64,000 bases of DNA from Klebsormidium nitens. Taxonomy: Eukaryota; Plantae; Klebsormidiophyceae. Shown piece by piece: positions 32,601 through 64,000 of this stretch. The translations under genes were made by a program, and so were the position numbers. The stretch is from the NCBI GenBank assembly GCA_000708835.1, contig DF237228.1:51512-115511 (forward strand), given 5' to 3'. Under the pieces are notes generated by a model that saw nothing but the letters and a program-made list of their open reading frames with translations, did not search any database and was not told the origin of the DNA. Positions within the stretch are counted from its first letter, which is position 1; each line of letters begins with the position of its first letter.

Positions 32601-32784
32601 TTGAGCAAAACAAGGCCCTAAAAGAGTACCTCAAATGATATTGGAGCCAGTGGTACAACGCGGCTTTTGCTTGGAGCATGTTCAGCGTTTTTGGCACGAT
32701 TTGATTGGGAGCCTAGAAGTGAAACGGCTTGTACAATTGGCCCTCAAGGTCTGGCCATTTGATGTTCATGCCTGGCGGCCGCTT

Positions 32785-34359: not shown

Positions 34360-35690
34360 ACGACGGCTCGGACAGTACTTTGGCAAGAGCTCACAATCTC
34401 GAATTCCGCCGTGGACGGGAGTCACGCTGTCCATCTAGAGGAACCCTCATCTACGAATCTGTCTTCGTGGACGGCTCGGACAGCACTTTCGCAGAGAGCT
34501 CGCAATCTCGAATTCCGCCTTGGACGGGAGTGCTGTCCATCTAGAGGAACTCAATCACGAATCTGCCTTGATAGACGGCGTGGACGGCTTGGACAGCACT
34601 TTGAAAGATGTCACAATCTTCATTCTTGATAGTTGTAGACGGGAGTGTTGTCGATCCAGAGAGAGGCTCATCTAGGAAATTGCCTCGATGGACAGCTTGG
34701 ACGGCTCGGACAGCACTTTGGCACGGAGCTCAAAATATCGATTCCCGCCGTGGATGGCAGTGCTGTCCATCTAGAGGAACTCTCATTCACGAATTTGTCT
34801 TCATGGACGGCTCGAACGGCTCGGACAGCACTTTGGAAGAGTAGCTCATTCGTATTCTGTTTCCAGCTTCACCACCATGGAGAGCGATGGCGCAATGCTT
34901 TGGCTTGCAACCTACCAGGCTGTGGACTTTTAGGGTTCGAACGTACACGTGATGACGTTTTGCAATTGGTGCCTGGTATCTTTGGCTCATAGCCTGGATA
35001 TTCCCAAGTCCACCTTGAACATTTGTTGGGATTGGCCGTCTGCTTCACGCACGTCCTGCCTTTCTGCCTAACTGCAAGACTGAAGAAACATTGGCCCTTT
35101 TTTGTGACAAGCCGCCTTGCATATACAACATGCCCTGAATCTACTATCGAATGCAGGGGTCGGAAAACTCTGGAAACCACTCGACATCGTCTGATGGTGA
35201 CGATGCGAAGGTGCTGACGACGAGTCTTCTGAATCGAAGGACGAGGAGACTGCATCGGACAAGGAGATGCTGGACGACCTTTCACAGCCGGTTGATTCCA
35301 CACATGACCATCGCCTTGCGGACCAAGAAAGAGAGATGGGAGCAAGTACGTTGGTGAGCCGGAGCCTACTCGAGTGCAGCTCAATTAGCGTCTCTATTCA
35401 CGTATTTCTCTCTCACTGACAAGACTTTGGAATTAGCTCACGATCTTGACTTGGATCCTTCGATGGATAGTGATGCAGTCCATCTAGCTCATCTACCAAT
35501 TCGTCTTCATTGACAGCTTGGACAGCTGAGCCAGCACTTTGAAAAGAGCTCACGAATCCGATTCTGGCCTCGATACCGGCCAGGAGCGGACGGGACTGCT
35601 GTCCATCTAGAGAAACTCTTAACTACGAACTTATCTTCATGGACAGCTTGGACGGCTCGGACAGCACTTTGGAAGTAGCTCATGATTTCG
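34360..35690 (+). repeat. Arrays of a ~100-120-bp repeat (GGACGGC/GGACAGC triplet + CTGTCCATCTAGAG), forward orientation: 34360-34850 and 35420-35690
   Basis: Unit consensus ...gtgctgtccatctagaggaa.ctc.tctacgaatt.gtcttcatggacggcttggacggctcggacagcacttt...; about 5 plus 2.5 copies. Confidence 0.85.
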
Positions 35691-44000: not shown

Positions 44001-44807
44001 TCAAGTGCGGGTGGTGACAGTGGTCACAGTTACCACCTCAGCCTGTCCCTTAGAGGATCTCGTAGTGGTCGTGGTTGTGGTAGTTACTTGAGGCTGACGG
44101 TATAGGGTCAGCTCGGGTGGCCCCTGCTCATTTGCCATCAGCTCAGTCGCCCCCAGCTCAGTCGCCCCCAGCTCAGTTGCCCCCAGCTCAGCCGCAGCCA
44201 CCAGGAATGCTTCTGCATGGTATGTCACACTGGCATATGCAATTATCAGAGACTTCTTGTCAATGTCGTCCTTCTTGTAGGGCAGACCAACATATAGGAT
44301 GTACAGATCCATCCTTGTGGACTTCCCTGCCCGCGACTTGCCATAGAAGGTTTGTCCAAATGTCTGCCAGGAAGTAGGAGGATAGGCATAGAATCTCTTG
44401 AGCACAGTGACCAGATCGTCAACAAATGAGTCCACTTGTATCATTTGGGCTATGGCCAGGTTGACGTATTTGGCGTAATCCGCTATTCCCTGCACGTCTT
44501 CAGCACAGTAGGCTGAAATTGAGGAGCCGAAGACTGGAGAATTGGCTTCTCTGTATGGTGGAGTCGATCCGTTTTCCATGTAATTGTACCCATGTTGCTG
44601 GTGAAAGTTCCACTGCACAGTCTTCAGGGCTGCTGCAGACAAGCGGTCTATGTCCTTGCTAAGGTCTCCGTCCGAGCGATTATTGACTTCTGCCAATGGG
44701 TATGATTGAGCCAGTTGGTCAAGCAGATCCTTCAGAGATACCAATGCATAAGGTACCACGTATTTGATGATAATCTCCTTCACCTCCCTCACAACAATAT
44801 TACCCAT
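44001..44807 (-). CDS. Hypothetical protein (268-aa ORF, possibly a terminal exon) with an ELGAT x3 repeat and a Thr-rich tail
   Basis: Long open frame with protein-like composition and an acceptor-like ccctcag just upstream. A 15-bp unit cagctcagtcgcccc repeats ~3.5 times at 44139-44191. It contains FYGKSRAGKST. Confidence 0.55.
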   Translation of the reverse strand: MGNIVVREVKEIIIKYVVPYALVSLKDLLDQLAQSYPLAEVNNRSDGDLSKDIDRLSAAALKTVQWNFHQQHGYNYMENGSTPPYREANSPVFGSSISAYCAEDVQGIADYAKYVNLAIAQMIQVDSFVDDLVTVLKRFYAYPPTSWQTFGQTFYGKSRAGKSTRMDLYILYVGLPYKKDDIDKKSLIIAYASVTYHAEAFLVAAAELGATELGATELGATELMANEQGPPELTLYRQPQVTTTTTTTTRSSKGQAEVVTVTTVTTRT

Positions 44808-45670
44808 CTCGTTGGGCCTGAGGGCGTTAAAACATCAAATTCAACGGGTATGCACAGCTCTTGACCTGCATGGAAAATGACCACATCGTTGGCACCTTGG
44901 CACAATGAGGCATCTTTCAAAAACAGGCAGGCAGTTGAGCTCTTCTGCCAGGGAAAGGACTTCAGGACATCTCATACAATGTGCTCTCAGCATCTCTGCC
45001 CTTCAACAAGGGATTCCTTCAGCCCGATTATGAAGACTTGCCAGAGGAGGCTCATGGAACACTCCTGCAGGATGAGCACAGCGTGACTGCCAATGACACA
45101 AATCGACAAGCTATGCAACAAAACGCGATTTTTACATTCAAATGCACTCACCTGAAGCAGCCAGCAGTGGATGACCTGACGTCCAAGAGACAGCAAAGGG
45201 TGTGTGCGAAAGGAGGACTGTGCAATGAGTCCCTTTGCGCGCCCACAGACGGGCCTGGTTGCACTCTTCACGAGGGCCGTTTCGAAGTCCAGAGCATGAT
45301 ACAATCGACGCGCGTTTAGAGTTGAAGCTTGGCTTGGTCAACTGGCACCTCATCAACTTTTATGAACATGTGGTCGGTGACATCTGCACCTCTCTTCACA
45401 CGATTGGTTCAAAAGATTCTCGCGATGAGGTCCGTAAGGCCGGGGTAAAGTTTTGACCAATCAGGAGGCGCCACATCAGCCCGGAAAGATTGCAGGGGTA
45501 GGGGTCGCTAGCAGGTCCCTAACCGCTGTCGAACACCCACACTGGAGCTGTAGCGGGTTCAACCGGGCACTAACTTCACCGGAGGTAAAACCGCGATTTC
45601 GGGCCGAAAGCCTGCAGGTCCACCACAGACCGGCTAGGTGACCATCACAACCATTTCACAAATTCTGTTC

Positions 45671-46764: not shown

Positions 46765-49212
46765 GAAAAGGGGGTTAAGGGGGTCCCAGGGAAAGAGGAA
46801 AATGAGGCGGAGGAGGGGGATGAATAGGGGGGTATAGGGGGGAAAGGGGAATGAGAAGAATGAGGCGGAGGAAGGGTGGGTATAGGGGGGGGGTGTAGGG
46901 ATATAATGAGGAGGGAAATCGTGAATACCAGTAATCATGTAATTATTACAAGTCCATTACGACTTTCTCCCGGCGGGCTGCTGGTGTCAGCTAATGCCTC
47001 AGTGCAATCACCGCTGGCCGCCCTGCACGCTGTTTTTGATTCCTTGATCATTGCAAGATTCTTGCATGCACATCAGTTTTCAAGGGGTTTCTAGGTACAG
47101 AAAGCGCCCTTCCTGCTTCAATCATTTGTGCAAGCCTAAAGAGCCCTATGGTTGATGCAGCCCGTGCAATCAGATCAGTGAAAGTCGGGTTCAGGGAGGT
47201 TTTTTCGCTACAGCTGCTGCAGCCTCTGCCTCCGGGAGAGGGCCGGGAGATTTGCAGCGCTTGGGAGGGTTCTGCCTTCCACATCCCTCCCAGCTCCTCG
47301 CTTAGAGTCGCTTGATCGCAACAGTCTGTCTGCAACTTCAAAGACACTAGACGATGGCAAGAGGAGAAGAGAACGGGGTGCTCTTCCAGGAATTCTTGAA
47401 CAGAAGGCGCCTCGAAGTTGAACAGCTGAAGTGTCAGAATAAGACCAAAGTGAGTCACAGTGAGCTGCTCAATGGGTCTGGTCATTCTCCACCCCGAAAC
47501 CCTACGACCTTGCCGATTCTGTGGATGCGAATTGCACGTGAGATTGCGAGGCACCTTAACCAATTACAATGGTCTGCGACGCGGAAGACATACTCAATCA
47601 GCTCACGTCATGCAGGCTGATTCTGAAAGTTGGAGTCTCCTTGGGTTCACACTTTTCTCAGATCTGAGAAGACATACAGTACAAAGTGCATCAGTAGATA
47701 ACGCCATGCAGTGGCTGTTCTCTACGTCGGCGAAAGTGCAGTCAGCATGTCTCAAGCGCCAGAGTGGCCCGCTTTACGGAACACTCTTCTTGCATGGATC
47801 AATCAGTCACAGTGGTCTGAGTCAGCTTGTGTCAGCCGCGTCAAGATGAGCAACTGTGAGCCGACTGCATCACACTATCTTGCACCAGGGGTCCGCTCCG
47901 GAAATGGCCATGAATAGATATGAAGCTAACGCCAGCCGTTCTTCGGACGGACATGAAGACGGCGCGTCTCGGGCAAACGCCACCCTCGATAGCTCCTCGA
48001 GCAACGCCAAGAGACTTGACGGAGCAGAAGCACAGTGCACTGTGGACGTTGATGCCAGGGTCGTCGAGGACAACAGGCTTTTGACCCCGGTAACCTGTCT
48101 ATGACACGTTTCCAGCACTTCGCGAGTTCCCCGTTCAAGACCTGATGACAAACCGTCCAGCTCGCGAGCTTGAACGGCTTACAGGTGCATCGAAAAGAAG
48201 GGCTCTTAAAAGCGCTCGCGTATTGTAGTGAAATCTTGCAAGTGAGGAGACGGAATCTTGCCTTTATATCCCCGGCGTTTCGACCCGACCTGAGGTCACC
48301 GTGGACGTCAACATCAACGCATGTTGGGGGAACGTTTGGCTCCCTCGTTCGGTTTTGGCGAAGGGCGCCGTTGTCGTATATTGTCTCTGTCTCTAGACCT
48401 CCGGGCACGCTTGTACCGTGTCCCAAGGATGGGCCAAGGGCAGCCGTAACGCCATCTTTGCAAGAAAAATCTCTGCAAAAGGCTTTACCAAGCAGATGAT
48501 GGCACGTGGCACTGAGGATTCGTGGCCGGATGTCTTCCGAGGGACTCTGGTTCTCGACGCTGTAAAACCCCTCACTGCCTGCTCGTCCCTGGCCAGGAAC
48601 CTCTGCCAAGGTCGGCGAGTCAGAGGCGTGGCGTCAAGCGCAAGGTGGAGGGTGATGGGGAGTCAGAACGGGTAGGGATTCTCGATGCCGGGTTCTTACA
48701 ATCCTGGGAAGCAAGCGTCATCGTCGGACGGTAATTACCAACGTGCCGACGAAGGAAGTTTCGGGTCAGACGGGAAAAGCATCATAACCTGCCCTTCGAC
48801 TCGATTAAAATGTCCCCACACCTCAGGCCGGCAGAGTGGCGCATCTTGGTTGCTGACATGTGGCCTGACGCTCAGACGCATCTCAATGACCAAGTCTCAC
48901 TCGGACAGCACGCTGTCCATCAAGAGGAATGCCGCTTTACAAACATCCCTCGTAGACAAGGTAGCCGGCCTCGACATCATCTTGAGAGTTGTCTAACATC
49001 TCTCGGTTCCCCCTCTGAACGGGAGTGCTGTCCACGTAAACGAACTATGTGTCCGGATGTGATGTCCGGATGTGATGTCCGGATTGCCTTCATGGACAAC
49101 TAAACCGGCTGAAACAGCCTTTTTAACAAGAGGTCACAATGTCCATTCCAACGAACGAGACCAGAACCATCCATCTAGGCTGCCTCCAGAACACTGTTAC
49201 GAACTGATGCAG

Positions 49213-52200
49213 GGGCCGGACAGTTTCGACTCCGCTTCATCAGACGGTGGTGATCATTGCGAAGGTGCGAACGACGAATCTTCTGAAGCGGACGATGAGG
49301 AGACTGCTTCGGACAAGGAGATGCTGGACGATTGTCCACAGGCGGTTGACACTGTACAGGACCATCGTCTTGCGAACCAAGAAAGAGAGATGGGAGCAAG
49401 CGCAATGGTAAGCTGACACTCACTCGAGTGCACCTTAATGAGCCTCCTCATACACACATCTCCCCTTCATGGTCAGCAATACGGAATTAGCTCGCGAGAT
49501 TGACATGGCCGTCCGCGAACGGGAATGCCGGGCTGTCCAACTACAGAAAGCCTCCGTCACAAATTCGTCTTCGAACTTGGACAGCTAATTGGACGGTTAG
49601 ACAGTACTTTAAAAAGCAGCTCACGATCTTGGATCTGAGAATTCACGGACAGAAGTGCTCTTCATCAAGAGGATTTTCAATTCAAGACTCTCCTTGAGGG
49701 ACAGCATAGACGGCAAGGACGGCCCTTTACAAGTAGCTCACCGTTTTCGATTCTGGATGCGGACGGAACTGCCGTCCATCTAGAGGGACGTTTATCTACG
49801 AAACTTGGTTTATGGACAGCTTGGACGGCTTGGACAGCACTTTCTGACAGTAGCTCACAATGTGATGGAAGTTTGTCACTGTCATTAGCTTTCAAGTGCT
49901 ATTTTTTCCGGGCTCGGGAAGTGTAACCTACCAGGCTTTCGTGCTTCAAAAGTGCAACGCTTTATCGTGGTGACGTGTGCGATGAAAGCGCGACCAATGC
50001 CTCTGGCTCTTAGCCTGGGGATTCTCAGTCCCCCTTTGACCATCTGCCGGAACAACGCTCTGCTTGTTGGGCGGCCTGCTTTTCAAATACTTAGATGGAC
50101 AGTAGTGCTGTCCATCTAGAGAAAGTCTCATTACGAATTTGTCTTCATGGACGGCTTGGACGGCTGGGACAGCACTTTAAACTTTTGCTCACGTTTGATG
50201 TGGCTTCGTCGCCGACGGACAGTACTGCCGTCCATCTAGAGAAAGTCTCATCTACGAATTCGTCTTCATGGACGGCTTGGACGGCTGGGACAGCACTTTG
50301 AAAGTTTGCTCACGTTTGATGTGGCTTCGTCGCTATGAATTGTGGAGGGCTACTGACTTTGTGCATTTTGTTCGTGACCAGGTTGAAGACCTCTAAACTG
50401 ATGACGTGTACGATCGATGCAGGGAGTTGCGGCTCGAGCCTTGGTTGCGAAAGGCTATGTCGTGTTCACGGCAAGCACCCAGTGGAACCCCGACGCAAAG
50501 GGAGGGAAGGGAGGGAAGAAAATGATACCCCCACGAGATTGGCCGGCCTCTACCTTAGCCGATTGTCTGACTGAACGCTTCTTCCAGCCCTACAACAACA
50601 CGCTGCTGATCAACACGGCAGCGTCTGGAATCGTCGTGCTAGACTTTGACCTTGGTGATGGGGGCATGGAGCAGCTTGCTCTCTGGGAGACCGAGCACGA
50701 CGCGTTTGATGCTCCTCGAGTGCGCACGGGCAGCGGGGGGGTGCACATCTACTTCTCTCACCGAAGAAGCGTTGAGTCGGGACTGGGCGTGGAGGCCCCC
50801 ACGCACTTTGCAAAGTTGGAGCTGAGGGTTCGAGATCCGATATCCGGAAAGGAGGTTCTGAAGAAGGTGGGAGTCGATATGAGGGGCGTCAGCTCGAACG
50901 GCATGATCGCTTGCCCGCCGTCATCGTATGAGCGACTCGGTGAGACGGCACGGTATACGGTTGACGGCGGAGGCGAGCTTCCCCCGGCAGAAGATCTGCC
51001 TCCTCTTCCGAAGTGGTTGATCGAGATTCTGAACGAGCGAGTGGCGAGGGGTTCTGGAGAGCGCACGAGACGGCCATCAAAAGTTCGCAGCAGGGCAGGG
51101 CCTAGCGCGAGGGCCAGCGCCGTACTCGGGGCGCCGGACCTGACGGATCTTGGGTTGCAGCAGAAGGTGGTCGAGGTGATGCGGGGCATGCTCAGCAGTT
51201 TCGGCGACAACTCCTCTCTCTTCTCGAAGGCAGAGCCGAGCACGGTTGCTGGTCTAGGGGCGGTGATGTACCACTGGCGGAATGATGGGGGAGGGCGAGT
51301 TTGTCCATATGCGGAGGACGGAGCACAACCGCACAGCAGCAACAACTTTGGTCTTCTCAGAAGAGGGACGGAGATCACCTACGTCTGCCACAGCCAGCGG
51401 TGCAAGACAAGCGACGGCTGCCGGAACAAGAAGCTCGGGTGTCTCATGTTCCCGGTGGCCGCATCTTTTTCGGATGCTTCTCCGCTCAACAGCGACCGGG
51501 ATCGCTTGTACGAGAATCGAGAACTGCTTCCTCTCCCGTTTCTGCGGCAGAACCTCTCGGTTTCAGCAGGTAAGCCGCGCCTTGAGCAGCATCAGTCCTA
51601 AGGCGCTTTCAATATACAAAATTGGGAGGTTATATTTCCGGTATATAACCTCTGAATTTTGACTTCCTCCATTTGGTGGAGGAAGTCAAAAACGAGGGCC
51701 AGGGGCAGCGCGCCCTCTAGTCATTGATGCACGAGGTCTGAAGACCATCATCAATTTTGCAAGTCGTGCTCCCGCGAATGAGTGATTGAAGCTCTCTGTT
51801 TCAGCAAGTAAGCCGCGCTTTGAACAATATCAGTCCTAAAGCGCTATCAATCTACGAGATTTAGAAGTTGTATACTTGGGTATACAACCTCTAAAATTTG
51901 ACTTCGTCCATTTGGCGGACGAAGTCAAATCCGAGCATTCAATCTCAAATATCCAAAGGTTGAACTCGCCTATCTGGTAGGCGAGTTTCCATTTGAGGGC
52001 CAGGGCTTGCGCGCCCAAGTCCCCGTCGCAAAAGGCTTGCTTACATCATCAATCTCTTGCAAGCCTGTGCTCTTGCGATTATGCAGACCTGAATCAAGAT
52101 CCGTTTCTTGTGTTACTTCTGAGCAGATTTCGAGAGATTCGAGACCCAAAGATTGTATTTGAAGTAGAAATATCGAGAAGTAGTTGTGCACGAAGTGCTT

Positions 52201-55103
52201 CTTAGGACAATTGACTAGCCGCTTGTGAACAAAGACGCAAGGTTGCCACTCGACTGTCGATCGCTTTCCACTGACAAGTCGCTGACGTTTCTTCCAGGTG
52301 ATGAAGGAGGGGCGCTCATCATCGACCGCTTGCAGACGTACACGGGCCGCAAGCTCGTCTTCTGTAACGAAAAATGGTTCTACTGGAACGGGTCGATTTG
52401 GGTGGTGGACGTGGCTGGGCGAGTTGCGAGCCAGATCTGCCGCGGGGAGCTCAACAAGATAAGCAAGGCATACAAGAAGGAGAAAGCGTCTGATGCCGAA
52501 GGCGAGGGTTCGCAAGCGGAGGAGGGAGAAAAGCCCAAGAAGGAGAAGCTCGTGAACTTCAACTTCAACGCCAAGATGAGCCAGATCATGACGACTCTCA
52601 GAGGATATTGCCTGGAGCCTGCGTTCGAGAAGGCGCTCAATACCAACAGAGATGCGCTTCCTCTTCAGAACGGCGTCGTCTTGCTGGAGAGCGGGATCCT
52701 GGTGGCACACCATCCGAAGGTGGGTATGAGGTTGCGGATGACTGACAGCTCAACTTCTTGATCAGCAAAGCACTCCTTCTGTCGTTGACATTAGTTTCAT
52801 TGTGCACTGCTGGCCAGCTTTGCAATGTTTTCACTATTGAAGTCCCAGCCACAGCTTTGTTGGCACACACTGCTCTCTCGAGTAATTGCACGCTTTCTGT
52901 CAAGGAGCAGAAAGGCAATCTTAAGCAAGGCAGCGGCATCTGCCACGGAGTACTATTCGTCCCAATATCCTTGATCTGAGTTGAATCTACTTCATTAAGG
53001 GGTGACTTAGTGTAGGGTGAAACTCTCAACGAGATTAGGTGGAAGCTGTCGTATTGAAGTAGCTTGAACAGAGCTCTAATATCTGCATGCTTCTCGGTTA
53101 CCGGTGAAAATTACATGCTGAAGGCTTGAAGATCCTGCTTTTCTTGTGTGATAGTCATCACCACATCGTCAGTGGATCCCTTCGGTTTTTATCTGGTCGA
53201 TGCGACTGCTTGGCAGAAATGCAGAACCTTGCATAGCAATTGTGTGTCACTGAACTCTCTCCATTTACTCTCTTGCAGTATCTTTGGTCTTTCAAGCTTT
53301 CCGTGCGGTGGCCATCGACGGGACTTGCCACGCCGCTGGGCAGGACGGGCGAGTTTCTCCGTCAGATCACGCGCACTCCGGAGGCGCTTGCGTATCTCCA
53401 GCGCATTCTTGGATACGGGATCACAGGTCACATCTCCAATCAGGTCATGCTGACGATGATTGGGGAGGGCGGAGCGGGAAAAAGCCTTCTCTTGGCTCTG
53501 CTGAGGCGTCTGATCGGTCCGTTCTACAAGGACGTCTCGAAGGACATGCTCGTGACGTCCAAGGGACAACGGCCGCTGGGCAAAGGTGCTGCAAATCCAG
53601 CAGAAGTAGGTGAGCACCTTGCAGACACGACTTATGCTTGAAGTTGACATCAATGAGACGCTCTGAACATGATAGAAGGGGGATAGAAGCCTTCAATGAT
53701 AGGGAGTTCGTATGCGCTTGAAGCAAATCACCCAACATGACGGTTAATCAACTTGTGTCGTGTTGATGCTGCTTTTTGTACAAAGGTGATCTCGGCAACG
53801 AGGTCTTTATCAAGTACTAACGGCCGTGCCTTCAGATGAATGAGATTTGTTTGCGTCATAACCAAACATTGTTTACCCAGGTTTACGATACATTCGGATA
53901 GCGGCGTGCACGGAGTCTGAAGAGACGGATGAGATAGCGGAGTCCAACGTGAAGCGGTTGACCGGCGAGGCGACCATCACGAGTAGAGGACTCTACACGG
54001 ATTATGTCACGTTTGCTACGACTCAGCTGGTGAGTTCCTCGTGCCCGATGCTGGCGCAATCATGTCTTCTTTGCGAGAAACTGCTATAGCCATGCTTAAG
54101 TTGCCATAGCTGTCTGTGACGGGTTGTCTTGTTGGACGACAACGCCTTCCAGGGCCCTTTGCATTCTCACGGCCGAAGTAGTTTCATTTAGATGTTTCTT
54201 GTAAGCTGTCCCAGCCGTCCGTGCCGTCCATGAAGAGGATTTTGTAGATGGAACCTCATCTTGATGGACAGCGCACTTGTCCAGGTTCTCGAGGCAAGTC
54301 TTTGCAGCCGAAGTCGGATTCTGAAAGCTTACCAACCATGCTGTCCAAGCCGTCTGTGCCGTCCATGAAGAGCGTGTTACAGATAGAAGCCTCTCTTGAA
54401 GGACAGCATTGCCGTCGACATTCACCACCTTTTCAACGATGCCAAGTCATTTAAAGTCACGCTTGTGTGTGCTCAAAAACGATCTTCATCCATTCTGCAG
54501 CACATCCTCTGCTCAAACTACCCGCCCCGAGTGAAGATCTGGACGATTGCGCTCAAGCGACGCCTCCTAACGCTGGTCTTCCCGATGCGGTTCTTCTATC
54601 CGGACGAAGCGGGCTACAATCCCGACAACCCGTTGCATGGGATCCGAGACCTTGAATTGGAAGACGTCCTGAAGGCCGAGCCCGAGAAGCTACTGGTGTT
54701 CTTGGTGCAAGGCGCCAAGGACTGGTACGCAAGTGGCAAAAGACTCCTCGACATGCCGGAGAGCAGCAAAACGTACATGCAGTCATGGGAGCAGGAGAAC
54801 GATCCGTTTGCAGCCTTCCTTCAGCAGGAGGGACGAATGAACATCAAGGCTTTTGAGTCCACGCGCAGCCTCATGGAGGCGTACAACAACCCGGACAGGC
54901 TGGTCGACGGCGTGAGATTCTGCGAAACCGATGCGCCACAAATCCGAAACGAGCGGAAGTTCGCGGAGGCTTGCAAGAAGAAGGGGCTGGAGGGCCCGGA
55001 TAAGCCGTCAGCGCTGAGGTTCGCTAATCCGGGGCACACGGTCCGGGGTTATCGGGGCTTCCAGCTCAACACGCCGACTAAGGAGAGCATTCTAGAAAAA
55101 TAG
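49213..55103 (+). CDS. Intron-containing Prim-Pol/Zn-finger/D5-SF3 primase-helicase, copy B, apparently intact. Exons 49213-49407, 50423-51569, 52298-52719, 53279-53609, 53881-54029, 54501-55103; further 5' exons possible
   Basis: Prim-Pol motifs SGIVVLDFD, VRTGSGGVHIYF, GVDMRG...IACPPS; Zn module CPY...HSSNN...YVCHSQRC; D5_N (GDEGGALII...WFYWNGSIW, LPLQNGVVLL); Walker A GEGGAGKS; Walker B region IAACTESEE; sensor CSNYPP; Arg finger KRRL. All five introns are GT-AG and phase-consistent. Confidence 0.9.
49560..50330 (+). repeat. ~100-bp repeat family, forward arrays in intron 1 of copy B
   Basis: ctgccgtccatctagag...tctacgaa...ttcatggacggcttggacggctgggacagcacttt at ~49770, ~50105 and ~50225, plus degenerate copies. 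Confidence 0.8.
51563..52090. repeat. Tandem duplication (~238-bp unit) of the exon 2 donor plus hairpin module in intron 2 of copy B; the equivalent in copy A is ~36897-37380
   Basis: tcagca(g/a)gtaagccgcgc at 51563 and 51801. Each unit has two stem-loops, including 14-bp perfect stems at 51657-51691 and 51896-51930. Confidence 0.8.
54170..54420 (-). repeat. ~100-bp repeat family, reverse orientation, in the last intron of copy B
   Basis: gctgtcccagccgtccgtgccgtccatgaagagg.ttttgtagatgg, about 2 copies; orthologous to 39215-39620. Confidence 0.75.
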
Positions 55104-55434
55104 CAAGTTCTATAAGATCAGTGACATACATGAGCTAGACGACCTATCCGTTAAAAAACGCTGGATAGAAGTCCGTTCAAAACTTCCTTATGTTTAACAA
55201 CTCTTAGTTATAATGGGCACGAGATTAGATGCGGATCCGGGTACGTTCACTGAGGATAAGCCTGAAAAATGTAGGAGTGCATTCCTTCACAGTGCTTGTA
55301 AAAAACCCTTGTATGCAGTTGCGGTGTGAATATGGCTGAACTTCTTGCTGTCTCAGTGATCTCTTTATCGTTTGTGCGATGCCTTTGAATCAACTCTCCG
55401 GCTTCTCCATGCGCGGATCCTCTCATCGAGTGCA

Positions 55435-55790
55435 AATGGAGTCATTACGTATGCATTCGAACTCTAAAAGTCTAAAGCCTGGTAGGTTGCAAGCAAAAGC
55501 ATTGCGTCATCGCTCTCCATGGGGATGGAGCTGGGAACATTATACAAATGAGCCACTTTCCAAACTGCTGTCCGAGCCGTCCGCGCTGTCCATGAAGACA
55601 AAATCGTAGATGGAAAGTCTTCTAGATGGACAGCACTCACGTCCACGGCGGAAATCGAGATTGGAAGCTCTCGCTAAAGTGCTGCCCAAGCCGTCCGCGC
55701 TGTCCATGGAAACAAAATCGTAGATGAGAGGTCCTTTAGATGGACAGCACTCCCGTCCACAGCAGAAACTCCATACGTGAACAAAGATCG
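55435..55790 (-). repeat. Inverted copy of 34690-34960 (repeat units plus adjacent unique sequence)
   Basis: The reverse complement reads ...ggacggctcggacagcagtttggaaagtggctcatt...ccatggagagcgatgacgcaatgcttttgcttgcaacctaccaggct..gacttttag.gttcgaa, matching 34805-34945. Confidence 0.85.
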
Positions 55791-55913
55791 TGCATATTGT
55801 CTTGACGTAGAATCTACAGAGGGGTATGAACGCTACCTTCAATCAGTGCGGCGTCATGACCGCTACATGGCTCTATCAATCGGTGGACTCATGACCGGAT
55901 TTCCATGACGCAA

Positions 55914-56411
55914 TCAATCCGAGTCCGAATCAGACTTAGAATCAACCAATTCTGCTTTCTTTGCTGGAGCAGACTTCTTTCCAGCGATCTTATTGTTGGG
56001 CTTCTGAGTGGCTTTAGTCGACTTCGAAACCTTCTTTGAAGAACTCGTACTCTCAATGTCTTCGATTTCCATCTTTGTAGCTATACTCTGAAAGGTGCCC
56101 TCGAATGGCAAACCTGTCGGGCGATTACTTTTCTTTACCGGACCGATTTCGACCGAGTATCCATACTTTTTATTCAATGAACCTCGTGTGGTCTCTTGTA
56201 TGAGAACAACTACCTTCTGTGGAAGAGAAACCTTTTTCCCCTGACATTTTTGCGTCCGAAAGAGTTGGGACCCTGCGCGGGCTCCTGCTTGACAGACGCG
56301 TCCCTTCTTCGCGTCGATCTCAAGTCGCGTATCCTTCAACAGAGCAAGGGCATCATTCCCCTTGGCATCGTAGGCAGCAATCACCCGGAAGCTTCGCTTT
56401 GCGGAATCCAT
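55914..56411 (-). CDS. Small basic intronless protein resembling giant-virus MC1-like DNA-bending proteins
   Basis: KRSFRV...AGARAGSQLFR...LIQETTRGSLNKKYGYSV fits, from recall, the RSF...AAxKAxsxLf...lrETTrGSxkKxYxY pattern of NCLDV MC1-domain proteins. It has a Lys/Ser-rich tail. Not confirmed by search. Confidence 0.6.
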   Translation of the reverse strand: MDSAKRSFRVIAAYDAKGNDALALLKDTRLEIDAKKGRVCQAGARAGSQLFRTQKCQGKKVSLPQKVVVLIQETTRGSLNKKYGYSVEIGPVKKSNRPTGLPFEGTFQSIATKMEIEDIESTSSSKKVSKSTKATQKPNNKIAGKKSAPAKKAELVDSKSDSDSD

Positions 56412-56778
56412 ATCGCTTGGCCTGGTGCACTTCTAATGATAGCTTCGTAGAAAATAATCCCGCTCCCTGAGGCATATTGTACTATGCGGATTCAACAATC
56501 TACGTTGCAAGCGATAATATATAGTGCATATGGTTTGGAACGCACGCGAAGAGATAGTGAAAAAGTGACAGGTGCATTTTAGATAACTAGTTATTCTCCT
56601 GAGAAATCTCGAGTTTTGTAAGCATTTTTCCGCCCCCCGCACGCAGTTTCCAGAAAATAAACGTTTAGGAGAGGATTCGATGTCATTTTATTGTGACCGA
56701 CCTTTTTGAAATAACTTGTTGCGAAACGGAAGACATTATAAAATTATTTTCTTGCATCATCGTAGACGGGTGATAAGT

Positions 56779-57696
56779 ATGGATACTCTACGGAAGGTCT
56801 TAGAGGATGGAATTAGGACCAAGAGTTCCACAGAGCAGTATCTCAAGGGGATTCAGCTTCTATAGAATATGGTTTTCGAGGTTGAAATGCCCGAGGATCC
56901 CTCATGGATAAAGAGCAAGGCTCAGAAGATCGTCGCAGCTGTTCTAGAGCGCTATGATAATCCTGGTTCTAGACGTACTCGCTTAGCCCCTTTTCTTGCT
57001 ATTTGTCGCAAACTCGGTTATGCAGAGGCTTATCAAACCTACTATGAGCCGTTTCGGAAGGAAAACAAAGCTCTGAAGGAGTCCGCTCAACGAAAGATTG
57101 AGAATAAGACCTCGGACACCACATCAGAAATAACAGTTGAAGGGGTCGAAACATTCGGAAAGAAGCTCGCTCGCAAGGTCAGACAGTTGAGTCTCGAGGA
57201 CATGGATCGAGATCTCACTCCTAAGGAGGTGAAGCTCTGTATGTGGCATCTCGTCCTTGAATGGCATATGCTCTTGAGTAAGGAGCATCGTCGTCGGGTA
57301 AAAGTGCACGAGCTTCCAATCATGCCGAAGGGCCAACATATGGAGGATAGAAGCTATTTGCTGCAGACCTCACGATGCAAGGGCGATTATAAACTCGTTT
57401 TTGAAGACGGTGATCGAATCCCTCTAACAAAGATGCTGAGCAAGTATCTTCATCGAACCCTTCGATTGATACCTCGAGATTACTTCTTGACTTCGATCAC
57501 TCAGCCGCAGACGGCTATGTCTGCTAGTAACTGGTCCATGTTCATGAGTAAGATCCAGTACAATGGAAAGCGCTTCAATCCAGATCGACTCTGATACGTT
57601 CGTATCTTATAAAAAATATCTGTGAAGATTAGTAACAACGAGGCAGTTTCACAGCGATGGATTCCAACTTCGAAGCAGAGGTACGCAGAAAACTGA
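56779..57696 (+). pseudogene. Degenerate tyrosine-recombinase-like paralog with three in-frame stops (56863 TAG, 57592 TGA, 57610 TAA)
   Basis: One reading frame from the ATG at 56779 to TGA at 57694. It parallels the adjacent recombinase: SSTEQYLKGI ~ DSTVLVYIRQL; SWIKSK ~ DWIEDH; LIPRDYFL ~ LIPRKYLI; NPDRL*Y ~ SCTLLRH; C-terminal QRY ~ ELY. Confidence 0.6.
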
Positions 57697-58700
57697 AGGT
57701 ACAATCTCCCGAGAAGGTTCTCCGTGGAGCTCCGCCGAACAGATCGGATTCGACGGTGTTGGTGTACATCAGACAACTAAAAACCGTGTATGCGGCTGGA
57801 GACTTTGGACCGAACCTGATGAACAGTCTCGACTGGATCGAGGATCACGAGCAGGTGATTTCGACCATAGAGAGTCTCGCGTCCCGTGATGGCAAGCTTC
57901 TTAAATCATTGACGAAGAGTAACTATGCAGCCCCTTTCGCTATTCTTGCTTCTGGAGAGACGAAATCAGCGTACTCGAAGTACATGCAGAGGATGAAGCC
58001 AACCGAGGAGGAACTCGATCATTCTATGCAGAGGAAGACGCCAAAAGAAGTCGACAATTGGATTCCCTGGTCCGAGCTCTTACAAAAACGATCGGAACTC
58101 GACGATCGGATCAACCGCTATGTTGTGCCGAAGTTCCACAAGAAGGAACGCTTGGATCGCCATGATAAGCAGTTGGTTATGGACCATCTCATTCTTGCAC
58201 TCTATACGATGCCCCTGGGACCTTTGCGGAATGAGTACGCGGAATGCATCTTTTTCGTGAAGGACCACAAAAAGGATTGCGTTGCGGTGAAGCCCGGTGA
58301 CGTCAATGTCGTCGAGTTGAACGAGGATCCCAAAAAGTGTTTCTTTCACATTGGTCGACACAAGACCCTCGAAAAAGATGGCGTTCGTTGCCTTCAGATT
58401 CCCGAAGATCTCGTAAAGGTTATACTCAGATCCTTTAATCTAATTCCGCGAAAATATCTGATCCTCAAGAGGCATTATCTCGTCTGGAACGATGAGCCGA
58501 TATCGAATTTCACTGTAGTTCTCAATGACCTCGGTCAGCGCCATTTCGGTAGGAATCTTAGTTGCACGCTGCTCAGACACGTTTCACATACGGAACGTAC
58601 TCCAAAGCTCATGTCTCGCGGTGAAGTACGAGCAAAGGCGCAGTACATGGGCCACAGTATGAGAACCGCGGATGAACTCTACAACAGACGATACGAATGA
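57657..58700 (+). CDS. Tyrosine recombinase/integrase (NCLDV / Polinton-like-virus type), intronless, 347 aa
   Basis: Catalytic set in the expected order: LALYTMPLGPLRNEY (R), GRHKT (K), CTLLRH (R), YMGHS (H), ADELY (Y). N-terminal TxxxY...DWI and NWIPW motifs are typical of this viral family. Confidence 0.88.
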   Translation: MDSNFEAEVRRKLKVQSPEKVLRGAPPNRSDSTVLVYIRQLKTVYAAGDFGPNLMNSLDWIEDHEQVISTIESLASRDGKLLKSLTKSNYAAPFAILASGETKSAYSKYMQRMKPTEEELDHSMQRKTPKEVDNWIPWSELLQKRSELDDRINRYVVPKFHKKERLDRHDKQLVMDHLILALYTMPLGPLRNEYAECIFFVKDHKKDCVAVKPGDVNVVELNEDPKKCFFHIGRHKTLEKDGVRCLQIPEDLVKVILRSFNLIPRKYLILKRHYLVWNDEPISNFTVVLNDLGQRHFGRNLSCTLLRHVSHTERTPKLMSRGEVRAKAQYMGHSMRTADELYNRRYE

Positions 58701-58796
58701 GTGGGCGATTCCCTCCTTTCTACACTTTGTGTGCGTTTTCGGAGAAGCACTTTTTCTGTGTTAGAATTACTAGGAGGCATCAGTTTCATTCCAGCT

Positions 58797-59042
58797 ATGG
58801 AATCGACGAATCACAATCATGGATCAACTGCCTGTGCTGCTTGTTTAGAGGCGAACATTTATAAGGACGAGCATCAGGCCAAGAAAAGAGAATATTCAAA
58901 GAGCTACTATCAAGTACACAAGGACGAGATTCTCTTGAAGAAGGCTCTAGAACGTATTGCGAAAGGAAGTAGAACAAGCAGACGGACGAGACAACGACTT
59001 TACGAGGCACAGGTCGCTATCCCCTGGATTCGATCGTACTGA
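58797..59042 (+). CDS. Small basic hypothetical protein, virus-like
   Basis: MESTN...CAAC...KKREYSKSYYQVHKDEILLKKALER. The kkxYYxxnKexi-type motif is common in small viral basic proteins. It sits co-oriented between the recombinase and the helicase. Confidence 0.45.
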   Translation: MESTNHNHGSTACAACLEANIYKDEHQAKKREYSKSYYQVHKDEILLKKALERIAKGSRTSRRTRQRLYEAQVAIPWIRSY

Positions 59043-59157
59043 GCAACACGTCTTTCCAAGTGTGGGCTCCGTCGAATGCCGCGTTCCATGTCGAACGAAT
59101 TTTTCTGGGGTTGAAAGTATAAGGGGGCTCCAAACCTCCTTCGGTCTGTGGAAAAGC

Positions 59158-62004
59158 ATGGCAACAAACTCGATCGCGGGCGTGTTGGAAGCGTATGCAC
59201 AAGAAGGACTATACGCTATCCCGGCAAAAGTTAGAGCAACGGACGAAGGATCGAAGGAGATTCTGGCAACGATGCCGCATACAAAAGGCAATCACGCTAT
59301 ACGAACGGTGTCCGATTGGAGAATGGCAAGGGATCGAATCATGGAAAAGTTTGGAAAAGAACGATACAACTTCTTCGCAATTAAGACGGGAGCCATTTCG
59401 GACATCTTCGTGCTCGATGTAGACACACGAGACAAACCAGAGAAAGATCTCCAAGCTGGCATGCCTCTCTGGAATAGATTAATTGCGGAACACGGAGAAC
59501 CAGACACTTTAAAAGCCACTTCTGCCAGCGGAGGCCTCCATTACTACTTCTCGTATGGTGAATCACTCAAAGACGGACTCCAATCAGGAAAGTGTTTTGC
59601 TGGAGTGGACTATGAGGGCCAGTATTATGGAATCGATGGGCGCGGAGATGGAGGCATCGTTCTGGCCCCACCGGGCTCACCTGAGATTGGGTTGAATTAC
59701 ACTTGGTGCGCACAACCTTCAAGGACAAATATCCGACCAGCTCCATTATGGGTGATCCATTTCCTCAACGATTCTGCTGGAAGATCCGCAAACAAGAGTC
59801 TCGCGTCGACTTCGAGCAATCGAATCCAAGAGTTGTCAGCAAACGGTGCTGATTTCGAGCAAGCAAGCGGGCTCGAATCGCCAAACACCAAGGAATACAT
59901 ACAAACGGAAAAGCACACCGAGAGTTTACACGAGACACAATCAATCGAGCACGAAAAAATTGCCGATGCAATGATGGCTTTGTTGCAAAACAACGGACTC
60001 GATACGAATGTTCAATTCTCCGGCAATGTGACCTTCCGTGGTCCATACGGCATGCTCTATTCATTCATCTGTGATGGTCCACGAACGTGCATACACGGCC
60101 ATCAGCACGGCGGTAGCAATAATCTGACGCTTGTAAAGCGAGGTTGGACGGTATTCTATCGATGCCATGGCATCGAATGCACAGAAAAGCCTCTTGCGTT
60201 GCTCGGCAATATCCCTCTTCCAGCATCGTTGCTGGATGCCAATCATGTACGTGTGCATCCCACGCACGATTGGTCTACCTTTCCCAACAATATAAGGACC
60301 CTGTCGGACGCTTCCCTGGAGGCACATATCAACCTCATAAGGCGTAATGTGACGCAGCGCTATCGAGGAATGGCAGCCATTTTCTCGGCTGTGTATCTCG
60401 TTGACGGACGCATTATTGCTGAGGGTAAAACATTTCAATACTGGAACGGTTGCCGATGGATCATCGACGATGCGTTCCATATACAAAGTGTGTTTAGTAG
60501 CCACATGTCTCGTATCATGTCTTGGTATGCGAAGCAGAGACTCAATGCCTTCAAGCAAAAAATCCGCGAATATATGAGAGACGCTACAACATGGCAAAAC
60601 GCACCCCTAACACCGGAATCGTCTCTTCCGGATTGGGCATTGAACCCAACGACTGAGGAAGAGCGAAAAATATGCACCGCCGCATGGAAATCAGTCAATC
60701 AGGCCTACCCATATCCCGAGAAGCGTGACCATGTAGACCTGACGCGGGGATCTGAGGTCCGTGTTTGCCTTGAATTTGTTACGAATGCACTGCAAGCTCC
60801 CCAAGCTCTTAGTGACTTGATGGATATTGCCAATCCGTATCAGTTTGCATGTGCCAACGGAATCATCGACACTGAGACCGGAAAGTTGCTCGCATTTCAT
60901 CCTTCTCATCTATGTTCGCGTGCGTCAAAGGCAGCATTTCGTGGAATGCCACAAGCTGGAAGCCGATTCGAAAAGTTTTTGCTCGATTGCTTCAATGAAG
61001 AGAGAGAAGTGCTCGAATGGTATCAACTCTTCTGCGGCTACTGTATGAGTACAGATACCAGTGAACAATTGTTCTTAATCAAGCAGGGCGCTGGAGCTAA
61101 CGGTAAGTCATTGACAAAGCTAGCTAACTTCGAAGTTTTGGGTAACTACGCTATTGTTATGTCTGAGGACTGCATAATCGAGGCCGGCAAACGTTCGGCT
61201 GGATCAGCATCGAGCCATATTATGGCGCTCCGCAGTGGAAGGCTGGCGGAGACCGACGAATCGGGTGAGAAAGCCGTCTTGAACGAAGCTGCAATGAAAG
61301 CGCTCTCGGGATCTGGCACGACTACAGGGCGCGAGCTGCATACCAAACAAGATACGTTTCAGATCACCGTCAAGACTGTCCTAAATACCAACTATCGACC
61401 TATCCTTCAGAATGTATCCTACTGTGTTACAAGGCGTTTGGCACTCCTCCCGATGTTGGTCACCTTTCTACCACCCGAAAAACTGGATTCTAGCAAACCC
61501 CGCCAAAAACTCATGGATACTACGCTCGAAGCGTATCTGAAAAGCGACCAGGGGCGAGAAGAGGGTCTTTCCTGGTACGCAGAGGGGGCCAAACGGTATC
61601 ACGAGCTGAAGCGTGCAAATCCAGGAAGTCTACCATTGATGCGCCGTCCTCGCGTCATGGAGGAAGCTGTTAAAGTCTACATAAATGATTCGGACATTGC
61701 TAGACGATGGATTGAAGACTGTCTTGATTTCGAAGATATTAGACTGGGTGCGAGGCCGACATGGCACTTAGCCGTCGGCGAACGACTTGGAGAGGCGTTC
61801 CGAGCTTGGTTGAAAGAAGAAGACTTGACTAGCTCTTTGTCGGCAACGGCGCTAAAAAAGCGCATCTTGGATTATGCTGAAGGAAAGAATCGGGTGGTCG
61901 TGGACGGTCGATTCACAGACAGCCAAGTACAATATCGAGGACAGTTTAAAGGCCTTTCGGGGGTTCGACTGAAATCTAGCTATGAATCGCATGCGTTGGA
62001 GTAG
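59158..62004 (+). CDS. Intronless bifunctional Prim-Pol + Zn module + D5-like SF3 primase-helicase (~948 aa from the ATG at 59158)
   Basis: AIKTGAISDIFVLDVD, ATSASGGLHYYF, GIDGRGDGGIVLAPPGS; C..HGHQHGGSNN...YRCHGIEC; FQYWNGCRW, FACANGIIDTETGKL; Walker A GAGANGKS; Walker B RLAETDES; LNTNYRP; TRRL. Confidence 0.95.
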   Translation: MATNSIAGVLEAYAQEGLYAIPAKVRATDEGSKEILATMPHTKGNHAIRTVSDWRMARDRIMEKFGKERYNFFAIKTGAISDIFVLDVDTRDKPEKDLQAGMPLWNRLIAEHGEPDTLKATSASGGLHYYFSYGESLKDGLQSGKCFAGVDYEGQYYGIDGRGDGGIVLAPPGSPEIGLNYTWCAQPSRTNIRPAPLWVIHFLNDSAGRSANKSLASTSSNRIQELSANGADFEQASGLESPNTKEYIQTEKHTESLHETQSIEHEKIADAMMALLQNNGLDTNVQFSGNVTFRGPYGMLYSFICDGPRTCIHGHQHGGSNNLTLVKRGWTVFYRCHGIECTEKPLALLGNIPLPASLLDANHVRVHPTHDWSTFPNNIRTLSDASLEAHINLIRRNVTQRYRGMAAIFSAVYLVDGRIIAEGKTFQYWNGCRWIIDDAFHIQSVFSSHMSRIMSWYAKQRLNAFKQKIREYMRDATTWQNAPLTPESSLPDWALNPTTEEERKICTAAWKSVNQAYPYPEKRDHVDLTRGSEVRVCLEFVTNALQAPQALSDLMDIANPYQFACANGIIDTETGKLLAFHPSHLCSRASKAAFRGMPQAGSRFEKFLLDCFNEEREVLEWYQLFCGYCMSTDTSEQLFLIKQGAGANGKSLTKLANFEVLGNYAIVMSEDCIIEAGKRSAGSASSHIMALRSGRLAETDESGEKAVLNEAAMKALSGSGTTTGRELHTKQDTFQITVKTVLNTNYRPILQNVSYCVTRRLALLPMLVTFLPPEKLDSSKPRQKLMDTTLEAYLKSDQGREEGLSWYAEGAKRYHELKRANPGSLPLMRRPRVMEEAVKVYINDSDIARRWIEDCLDFEDIRLGARPTWHLAVGERLGEAFRAWLKEEDLTSSLSATALKKRILDYAEGKNRVVVDGRFTDSQVQYRGQFKGLSGVRLKSSYESHALE

Positions 62005-62087
62005 GTGACGACGCGTCGAACAAGCGCTTACATGCAAAGGGGAGCTATAGACTTTGCAAGCTTATTGTTATATTTTTCCAGGTCCAA

Positions 62088-62345
62088 GTTCTGGGCTTCT
62101 CCTCTGCAGACCAAAAGTCTATAAGACCACGATTTCAAGTATTTTCGATTTCAGAATTCTCCAGGGGCCATGATTGCTATAATAGAAAAGATACGGATTC
62201 CAGGTCTTTTGGGCTTCTGGTCTGCAGACCAAAAGTCTATAAGACCACGATTTCAGGTATTTTCGATTTCAGAACTCTCCAGAGGCCATGATTGCTATAA
62301 TAGAAAAGATCTGGAATCCGGGTCTTCTGGGCTTCTGGTCTGCGC
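62088..62345. repeat. 118-bp tandem repeat, ~2.2 copies
   Basis: tctgcagaccaaaagtctataagaccacgatttca at 62103 and 62221, with near-identical units. Confidence 0.9.
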
Positions 62346-62534
62346 CCCCATCTAGGCACGATCATGCCACTGGCACACGTACCTTTCTCGTTTGCACCGA
62401 AGTGGTATAGCTTCTTCTAATGATAACGACCATACATTACGCACATCGATGCTGTTGGAACATGCATGCAGCATATGATGAAACGTACAAGTCATGGTAA
62501 GTTTTCGATTGGTGTCTTTGTTTCAACAGCGTCT

Positions 62535-64000
62535 TTAGTACATCAAGAGTCGTTGCCGTACAGACGGTCTCCACGTGTCTGCTCTGCCCGCAATGCGCAG
62601 CTTTGGTTCGTCAACCCGTAGCAAGGCGCTGTTCCTTCCGCTGACTTGGTTAGGAAGGATAATCATGAACGCTACGAGGCTACTATGCCATGCTTGTGTC
62701 TTGAACTTCACGAGGAAGGCGTTGCACGACTCCACTGCCGATGTGTTGACCCATCGCACAGAGTCGTAGTAGTCTGCACGTGATCCATATGGGGATTGAG
62801 TTAGTTCATCATAGAAAAGCTTTGAGACATGGCGTTGTAGGAGAATGCCGCATAGACGTACACTCTTGAAAGGCAGTCAGAACTTGCCTCCCTATTCTAT
62901 AGAAGAGAGAGGGCGTTTTTGACTGAGTCACTCTAAATCCGCTCCTTTGCACACACACTCTGGANNNNNNNNNNNNNNNNNNNNNNNNNNNNNNNNNNNN
63001 NNNNNNNNNNNNNNNNNNNNNNNNNNNNNNNNNNNNNNNNNNNNNNNNNNNNNNNNNNNNNNNNNNNNNNNNNNNNNNNNNNNNNNNNNNNNNNNNNNNN
63101 NNNNNNNNNNNNNNNNNNNNNNNNNNNNNNNNNNNNNNNNNNNNNNNNNNNNNNNNNNNNNNNNNNNNNNNNNNNNNNNNNNNNNNNNNNNNNNNNNNNN
63201 NNNNNNNNNNNNNNNNNNNNNNNNNNNNNNNNNNNNNNNNNNNNNNNNNNNNNNNNNNNNNNNNNNNNNNNNNNNNNNNNNNNNNNNNNNNNNNNNNNNN
63301 NNNNNNNNNNNNNNNNNNNNNNNNNNNNNNNNNNNNNNNNNNNNNNNNNNNNNNNNNNNNNNNNNNNNNNCTGAGTCACTCTAAATCCGCTCCTTTGCAC
63401 ACACACTCTGGATGGGCGGCCCCTTCGAGCAGAGTAGAGCACATGTGCCTTGCAAATGCATCAGGGTCTCACCTGTGTTGTATGATGGACCACACTTGTG
63501 TGCCTCGGCGGTTGTGTGGTGGAAGTGGAATCTGCAAGGATCAAGCACGAATTGAGAACCAAAAATGTACAGCAGTGCACAGCTGAGGAAAGTCGCAATG
63601 CAATATGGCAATGGCACGGAGGATCACAAGAATTGCTCTCAACAAGAGCCGCCCCTTGGCTTGCGCAAATCTTCCGACCTTACCTATCAACCAGGAACCG
63701 AACGTCTGCAAAGAACGCTGGCTCTCTCCGCATCGCGTAGGCGCGCAGCTTGCAGGCGTTGTCGTGGATGAGGTACAGAGGAAGATCTCTCCGATTGAGC
63801 CGCGTGTACAGGACGGTGAAGGGGTCTCGCGGCGACTCCCCGCGGAGCATGACGTGGAAGCCATAGATGACACAATGAGGGCACGAGAAGACGAAGCCGC
63901 CCTTCGTGTGCCGTTGCAGACGCTTATTCTTCTTTATTCCGCTTTCCAGAGCGACCTTGGCATCGAATTCCCCGACGGTGAGCCCGCTTCGACACCGATG
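62535..64000 (-). CDS. KDZ (Kyakuja-Dileera-Zisupton) family transposase, 3' part; exons >64000-63684, 63531-63473, 62773-62535; continues beyond the window
   Basis: Spliced translation RHTKGGFVFSCPHCVIYGFHVMLRGESPRDPFTVLYTRL...LIHDNACKLRAYAMRREPAFF...LVDR|FHFHH...HKCGPSYNT|DYYDSVRWVNTSAVESCNAFL carries the KDZ CxH, ES, DxAC, DxFH..H.C and NTxxxE motifs. Intron phases match. Confidence 0.85.
62965..63370. other. Assembly gap (N run), probably a spurious overlap
   Basis: The 42 bp before the gap (62923-62964) are identical to the 42 bp after it (63371-63412). Confidence 0.9.

Follow-up and report, generated by a model that had tools for sequence, protein, structure and literature searches.

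A multicopy virophage-type replication and integration block, possibly joined to a KDZ transposon, in Klebsormidium nitens

Introduction

Transpovirons, pipolins and P4-type satellites are capsid-less replicons with a helicase or a primer-independent replicase, and an integrase is present in pipolins and P4-type satellites. In Polinton-like viruses (PLVs) and virophages, an end module has been described from CBEV_PLV1, AHEV_PLV2 and Gezel-14T in which a primase-helicase lies between a tyrosine recombinase (YR) and inverted repeats; its authors propose that the repeats act both as origin and as substrate for recombination, and that the module can move (PMC11296320). The same recombinase-helicase-repeat layout appears in 10.1101/2025.10.09.676808, PMC12220804 and PMC10120064. 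Surveys of endogenous PLVs begin from capsid genes (PMC10120064), and capsid-less derivatives are therefore invisible to them. The present study concerns a block of five reading frames at 55914-62004 of a 64,000-nt stretch of Klebsormidium nitens DNA (contig DF237228.1, assembly GCA_000708835.1), here called the window, in which a YR, a primase-helicase and palindromic repeats lie next to a KDZ-type transposase gene.

The block was found in many diverged copies with conserved gene order, and no capsid gene was found in the window. The reading we prefer, at a probability of roughly 45%, is that it represents a capsid-less virophage/PLV-type replication-integration block joined to a KDZ transposon and copied with it. 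An initial annotation of the window, made from the sequence without database searches, had proposed a capsid-less integrative replicon. Its observation is partly confirmed and its interpretation partly supported, in that a conserved multicopy chromosomal block with recombinase and primase-helicase stands in the window without a capsid gene.

Copies and linkage of the block

The five frames are intronless, are separated by gaps of 367, 62, 96 and 115 nt, and make the block 89% coding; the longest frame has 948 codons, compared with 225 in 300 shuffles. The tight packing of five intronless genes that had been noted for this span is real as far as the frames are concerned, but gene 2 is a broken second recombinase and not an intact separate gene. 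The window is a eukaryotic chromosome with intron-containing genes, and G+C content is 45-49% across the five block genes as against 58-60% in the exons of the neighbouring intron-containing helicase. TATA-like words, picked out by eye and without a control, stand 40-49 nt 5' of the starts of both recombinases (YR2 and YR1) and of the helicase, that is, of three of the five genes, which suggests host nuclear transcription of the block.

Other copies were read through proteins and through short-read contigs aligned to the window (runs X1, X5, X6 and X8), run X1 being possibly the window's own source sample. In X1, depth was 118-416 over the block (summed over contigs, hence not a copy number) and 14.5-19.7 for unique zero-difference contigs of the flank, and there were 8 variant contigs at position 57143 and 10 at 57879. 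The raised depth and the 8-10 variants at single sites together show that the block exists in many diverged copies. One X6 contig spans 56026-59847 unbroken. At the left junction, a zero-difference contig of single depth (55084-56085) joins a 115-nt repeat array to the MC1 gene, and the junction is therefore chromosomal. In one other copy the match extends leftward as far as 55853, beyond which stand 1075 nt of different sequence; 55853 is thus our best estimate of the left limit of the block. The only named close homologs of the block proteins are from Klebsormidium nitens. Two trivial explanations were rejected: contaminant DNA is ruled out by the contig across the left junction and by the close homologs annotated in K. 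nitens, and a lone decayed fragment by the conserved multicopy chromosomal block. A side observation on the copies concerns run X8, in which C>T (567) and G>A (390) differences over 46800-62960 exceed T>C (117) and A>G (125), unlike in X1; this bias would fit decay of the copies through methylation in that sample.

Gene order is conserved among the copies, as far as contigs equated by size can tell. Among the matches listed, and by this indirect count, a recombinase homolog shares the contig of at least 13 of 20 helicase homologs, at least 8 of 9 ORF81 homologs and at least 5 of 12 MC1 homologs. The linkage of recombinase and helicase recurs in relatives down to 55% identity, both YR1 and the helicase being intact across 55-88%, and one K. 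nitens protein (P0022) is a fusion of recombinase and helicase pieces. A sister family, 55% identical, is likewise repeated, since its clusters comprise 14-16 near-identical members, found on contigs of 1-83 kb.

Gene content

In the 948-aa protein, Pfam finds Prim-Pol (PF09250, E 1.7e-15) and D5_N (E 3.5e-10), and the primase and Walker motifs are intact, which bears out the earlier statement that this gene is uninterrupted. Its homolog KFL_011090010 of K. nitens is 71% identical. In a FastTree phylogeny of 34 of 38 rows (P0023, P0024, P0034 and P0044 were dropped as too short) with low deep support, the block helicase falls in a group (support 0.965) with virophage helicases and P0025 of K. 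nitens. P0025 (KFL_013760010) itself represents a third Prim-Pol/D5 family in K. nitens and is about 30% identical to the block helicase. Between recombinase and helicase lies open reading frame ORF81, for which nine homologs of 80 aa with 62-65% identity were found, and the read-through protein P0254 shows the same gene order around it as the block. Judged by this conservation ORF81 is a genuine gene, and DNA binding is its likely function. An Atlas search gave it leads at 0.87-0.88 only, and among 777 small frames of viral loci there was no convincing match (best E 0.008).

The recombinase with a full catalytic set that had been reported is YR1. Its R-K-R-H-Y set is complete, and R191, K236, R307, H333 and Y342 fall on invariant or near-invariant columns among 25 aligned family members. 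YR1 has no direct Pfam match; its profile matches 880 proteins at E<=0.001 and, at the level of the family, the solved integrases 3nkh (E 8e-5) and 4a8e (E 3e-4). With a low-confidence structure model (pLDDT 55), Cre and Xer rank first, at E 0.047 or worse. YR2 matches the recombinase profile at E 6e-23 when stops are read as X. Its ATG lies at 56779; an in-frame TAG follows at 56863 (codon 29) and an early TGA at 57592-57594, at the position of the family's LRH arginine, so that the last three members of the R-K-R-H-Y set (LRH arginine, final His and Tyr) are missing. Because of the early stop and the lack of the catalytic His and Tyr, the window copy of YR2 is predicted to be dead as an enzyme. 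In a tree of 58 rows YR2 groups with P0052 and not with YR1, within the same subclade (support 0.936).

The MC1-like protein has 13 homologs of 55-92% identity, one of them in K. nitens (KFL_011770020, 77%), and no direct Pfam match. Its identification was borne out indirectly, through a viral family that links the window protein to Pfam MC1. A motif scan yielded 42 viral stretches, many from giant-virus bins; hhalign aligned 16 motif-selected viral proteins with the window family at 98.3%, and eight of these 16 matched Pfam MC1 at E<=1 (best 8.7e-4). Since the motif itself had selected the 16 proteins, the region upstream of it was scored separately, and gave 19.9 bits against a maximum of 8.0 in shuffles (none of 993 scored reached it). 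Homology to PF05854 or the giant-virus MC1 domain is thus indirectly supported at the level of sequence profiles. Searched as a profile against PDB, the MC1 alignment found no match, the MC1 profile matched in none of the three viral records searched, and the single-sequence structure model (pLDDT 49) was too poor for comparison of folds.

Palindromic repeats and the KDZ-type gene

Each unit of the 118-nt repeat to the right of the helicase is an imperfect palindrome, and the repeat holds the top 26-nt-arm palindrome of the window (20 of 26 pairs, compared with at most 17 in 30 shuffles). In a diverged relative, X6 record 17, the repeat is collinear and lies at the same distance from its helicase; because of this constancy the repeat may well be a working cis element, and it is a candidate origin or recombination site. 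The att-like direct repeats that had been proposed as a check were not detected: repeats shared between the two flanks of the block, direct or inverted, do not exceed 11 nt, and for this reason neither att sites nor terminal repeats are established. As to terminal inverted repeats of an element of 15-30 kb, palindromic repeats were found on the right side only, and no partner on the left.

A spacer of about 190 nt separates the repeats from the last exon of the minus-strand KDZ-type gene. The three visible exons join in phase over GT-AG introns, and a gap of N falls inside an intron. Exon 62535-62773 alone has no Pfam KDZ match; it carries N-x-S-x-x-E-x-x-N, and exon 63473-63531 carries F-H...H...C, both of which we take to be KDZ transposase motifs. 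Between 61899 and 62858, a stretch that takes in the repeats and the non-coding spacer, the listed X1 sites have depths of 156-343. An 11-nt deletion at 62344 is present in a contig of depth 70, and other copies therefore cross from repeat to spacer. Repeat, spacer and exon are also linked to one another by further indels of other copies, and in one X1 contig 58654 in YR1 is joined to 62730 in the KDZ exon, with 42 nt on one side of the joint. In the separate study X5, a contig bridges 62321-62690 (374 nt). The multicopy unit appears to run on into the KDZ-type gene in more than one copy, with no break seen. The KDZ transposase reported earlier to the right of the block is accordingly present as three in-phase exons with a weak Pfam match, but it appears to be part of the repeated unit and not a mere neighbour.

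Two features within this gene are recorded in their own right. A 52-nt imperfect palindrome in the KDZ intron (62874-62925) pairs at 19 of 26 positions, more than any of 30 shuffles. An identical 42 nt stands at 62923-62964 and 63371-63412, on both sides of the N gap, so that an overlap or a collapsed repeat may underlie it. The coordinates of all features are collected in Table 1.

Table 1. Features of the block and of its two flanks in the window
Feature	Position	Strand	Remarks
MC1-like DNA-bending protein, giant-virus type	55914..56411	-	165 aa, basic low-complexity tail
YR2, broken second tyrosine recombinase	56779..57594	+	profile E 6e-23
YR1, intact tyrosine recombinase, virophage/PLV family	57657..58700	+	347 aa
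ORF81, basic protein with CxxC	58797..59042	+	81 aa, conserved between recombinase and helicase
Prim-Pol / His-Cys domain / D5-type superfamily 3 (SF3) helicase	59158..62004	+	948 aa, uninterrupted
118-nt tandem palindromic repeats, ~2.2 copies	62076..62343	.	units 90% alike
KDZ-type transposase, last exon seen	62535..62773	-	in-phase AG acceptor
KDZ-type transposase, short exon	63473..63531	-	in-phase join
KDZ-type transposase, exon leaving window edge	63684..64000	-	PF18758 E 0.19, GT donor
Left neighbour outside block: 115-nt repeat array	55441..55768	.	inverted copy (81%) of 34634-34956

Interpretation

Under the preferred reading, movement or copying of the unit between chromosomal sites would fall to the KDZ transposase, and the palindromic repeats would be the substrate on which YR1 releases or resolves a free form. 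These 118-nt repeats would also be the loading site of the primase-helicase, which would prime and unwind for a polymerase of the host or of a giant virus; such a polymerase would be needed because pPolB is missing from the block. Bending and compaction of this DNA would be the role of the MC1-like protein, possibly for carriage in the particle of a helper; Mimivirus gp275 offers an analogy for such compaction (10.1101/2024.02.22.580433), and a giant-virus MC1 protein has been found in virophage particles (PMC11464507). We regard as doubtful the further step to a new composite class in streptophyte algae, a fusion of a KDZ transposon and a capsid-less virophage replicon that would transpose within the chromosome, excise and amplify by its own recombinase and primase-helicase in giant-virus infection, be packed into the particle of the helper by means of a stolen MC1, and form a chromosomal counterpart of transpovirons.

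Several points weigh against the preferred reading. Neither end of the unit is defined, since the window stops short of the right end and other copies are unread on their left side. The link to the KDZ gene consists of short-read contigs, among them one joint with a 42-nt side and one bridge of 374 nt, and the X5 bridge could be the same locus in another strain. The PF18758 match of exon 63684-64000 (E 0.19) is below the cut-off, and the last 430 nt of X6 record 17 have no match to the KDZ side at 85%. The X1 depths are not copy numbers, and the co-contig counts are indirect. Finally, seven PLV capsid genes are known from K. nitens, on contigs of 12,919-60,623 nt (PMC10120064), and among 22 viral loci of distant recombinase relatives a capsid or ATPase gene is present in 19.

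The last two points favour the main alternative, that the block derives from an ordinary PLV or virophage, whose replication and integration end it would be; this copy would have lost the capsid module, perhaps at the border with the intron-containing helicase element at about 55.8 kb, and other copies would be complete. If other copies do carry capsid genes, the element would be an ordinary PLV, unusual in its MC1 gene. The layout is that of the published end module (PMC11296320), a D5 gene adjoins the recombinase in Tetraselmis PLVs, the block helicase groups with those of virophages, and the 1075 nt in the other copy lead leftward into unread sequence. In the window, the statement that no capsid, pPolB or packaging ATPase is visible was borne out for 25.5-64 kb: Pfam found capsid, A32 and pPolB in none of 114 frames of at least 95 aa, and custom capsid, penton and ATPase profiles run over all six frames gave best E values of 3.8-7.7. 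No double-jelly-roll capsid was found there, with the limits that the profiles used lacked the Klebsormidium capsid group and that the sensitivity of Pfam to PLV capsids is limited (among the controls A32 was found in 2/2 cases and the virophage capsid in 1/1, but the putative PLV capsid of locus L001 was missed). For the A32-type packaging ATPase the best custom E was 3.8. No unexplained frame in this part exceeds 277 aa. The 277-aa frame at 44004-44834 (minus strand) has a Walker-A-like word and short repeats, and no Pfam, PHROG or convincing PDB match.

The viral collections likewise speak for and against a truncated PLV. The 22 loci, which were drawn from a seed locus at 26% identity and then its relatives, and from which the profiles were built, have a D5 primase in four cases and neither MC1 nor a second recombinase in any, in a collection biased towards capsid-bearing contigs. 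Among 2.9 million viral contigs there was no close relative of recombinase or helicase, only two matches at 26%; metagenome contigs gave no close locus (three matches at 31-33%, and no DNA match to the window), and prokaryote genomes and phage records none either. No account of the block in Klebsormidium came up in a literature search covering few subscription papers. Block genes occur in two K. nitens records, of 13,723 and 12,514 nt; all seven capsid contigs are longer than the latter and six of the seven longer than the former, which argues weakly against close linkage of capsid and block, weakly because assembly versions may differ. Taken together, we consider a truncated PLV rather unlikely, although it survives better than the explanations that follow.

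A self-standing recombinase replicon, as proposed in the initial annotation, would leave as a circle and re-integrate through YR1, the KDZ gene being a frequent neighbour or preferred target. The intact and linked YR1 and helicase, the sister family with its near-identical clusters, and the repeat that stays with the helicase in a relative without a KDZ match (X6 record 17) are in keeping with it. Against it, no repeat longer than 11 nt is common to the two flanks, no X1 loose end falls between helicase and KDZ exon among the six best-supported ends listed, and the non-coding spacer towards the KDZ gene is as multicopy as the block. This proposal we therefore hold to be unlikely. Very improbable is a passive endogenous giant-virus fragment, amplified by duplication or as inert transposon cargo: the giant-virus type of the MC1-like gene, the phycodnavirus-like core genes in Klebsormidium (PMC5294986) and the broken YR2 of the window copy would fit, but the 114 frames hold no other giant-virus core gene (the cluster of PolB, major capsid protein, VLTF3 and A32 that marks nucleocytoplasmic large DNA viruses was matched by none), and passive decay is disfavoured because it would not keep gene order and full-length frames, as they are conserved across families 45% diverged in protein.

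Neighbouring helicase genes

Two intron-containing Prim-Pol/D5 genes lie to the left of the block, at about 35.8-40.3 and 50.4-55.1 kb, and are 92.5% identical to each other. The initial annotation had seen them and the block helicase as one family at two stages of endogenisation. The central His/Cys domain is indeed common to both, but identity over the helicase domain is 24-26%, they are no closer to the block helicase than unrelated metagenomic primases, and they do not group with it in the tree; a common family was therefore rejected. No recombinase was found near them.

The region 34362-55768 has features of its own. Palindromic 115-nt arrays stand upstream of these genes and within their last intron, and the 81% inverted pair 34634-34956 and 55441-55761, about 21 kb apart, belongs to the intron-containing helicase elements. 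These genes are multicopy in X1 (depth about 60-120), and between their two last exons there are 39 synonymous and 13 non-synonymous codon changes. Some X1 contigs skip or shorten the introns 52727-53276 and 53598-54570, one having 159 nt for 547, and intron length or presence therefore differs among copies. The region may constitute a helicase-only mobile element in its own right, so far undescribed, that has spliceosomal introns but no integrase. A tandem array of units of about 100/196 nt at 32773-33504 is unrelated to the other repeats.

Comparison with known systems

Like pipolins and P4-type satellites, the block pairs an integrase (YR) with a replicase (primase-helicase). The three capsid-less groups differ from it in that transpovirons use a superfamily 1 (SF1) helicase, pipolins use piPolB and P4-type satellites are bacterial, and we know of MC1 in none of them. 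In Tetraselmis PLVs (S2x) a D5 helicase-primase adjoins the tyrosine recombinase as in the block, but capsid genes are present. The virophage loci L052-L054 share the order of the block, recombinase followed by helicase on the same strand, with about 0.9 kb between the two in these loci; they too have capsid genes, and their helicase is only about 19% identical to that of the block.

Gene clusters with transposases form a second group for comparison. The giant repeats of Amoebidium share with the window block that they are repeated recombinase-rich clusters flanked by a transposase, in their case Plavaka, which we take to be of the same class as KDZ. They are of up to 50 kb, come from an ichthyosporean, and are likened here by their description, of which the available text mentions no primase-helicase or MC1. 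These Plavaka-associated repeats are intron-poor gene clusters with many tyrosine recombinases (PMC11244446), and the block could explain such recombinase-rich, transposase-flanked repeats. Teratorn, a fusion of piggyBac and a herpesvirus that has been called the first such case (PMC10175614), resembles the block in joining a cut-and-paste transposase to virus genes, with intragenomic spread as the result; it differs in its 180 kb, its whole virus with capsid, and its other classes of transposase and virus. Zisupton and Kyakuja elements are present in green algae (PMC8226300). If the preferred reading is true, the KDZ-virophage fusion would be a further union of a cut-and-paste transposon with a virus, in a cultured relative of land plants.

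The nearest system is still the PLV end module, with which the block shares the layout of recombinase, primase-helicase and repeats. The block works like this module, in a window in which no packaging ATPase was found. The end module is one end of a capsid-encoding virus, whereas here no capsid gene was found in the window and the block has, in addition, an MC1-like gene, a second recombinase and a spliced transposase gene after the repeats. A conserved multicopy end module would put to the test the proposal that the module moves alone (PMC11296320). The layout of recombinase, helicase and repeats is thus already known from the PLV end module, and what is new here is the multicopy block, its linkage maintained to 55% identity, the palindromic 118-nt repeats and the continuity into a spliced KDZ-type gene.

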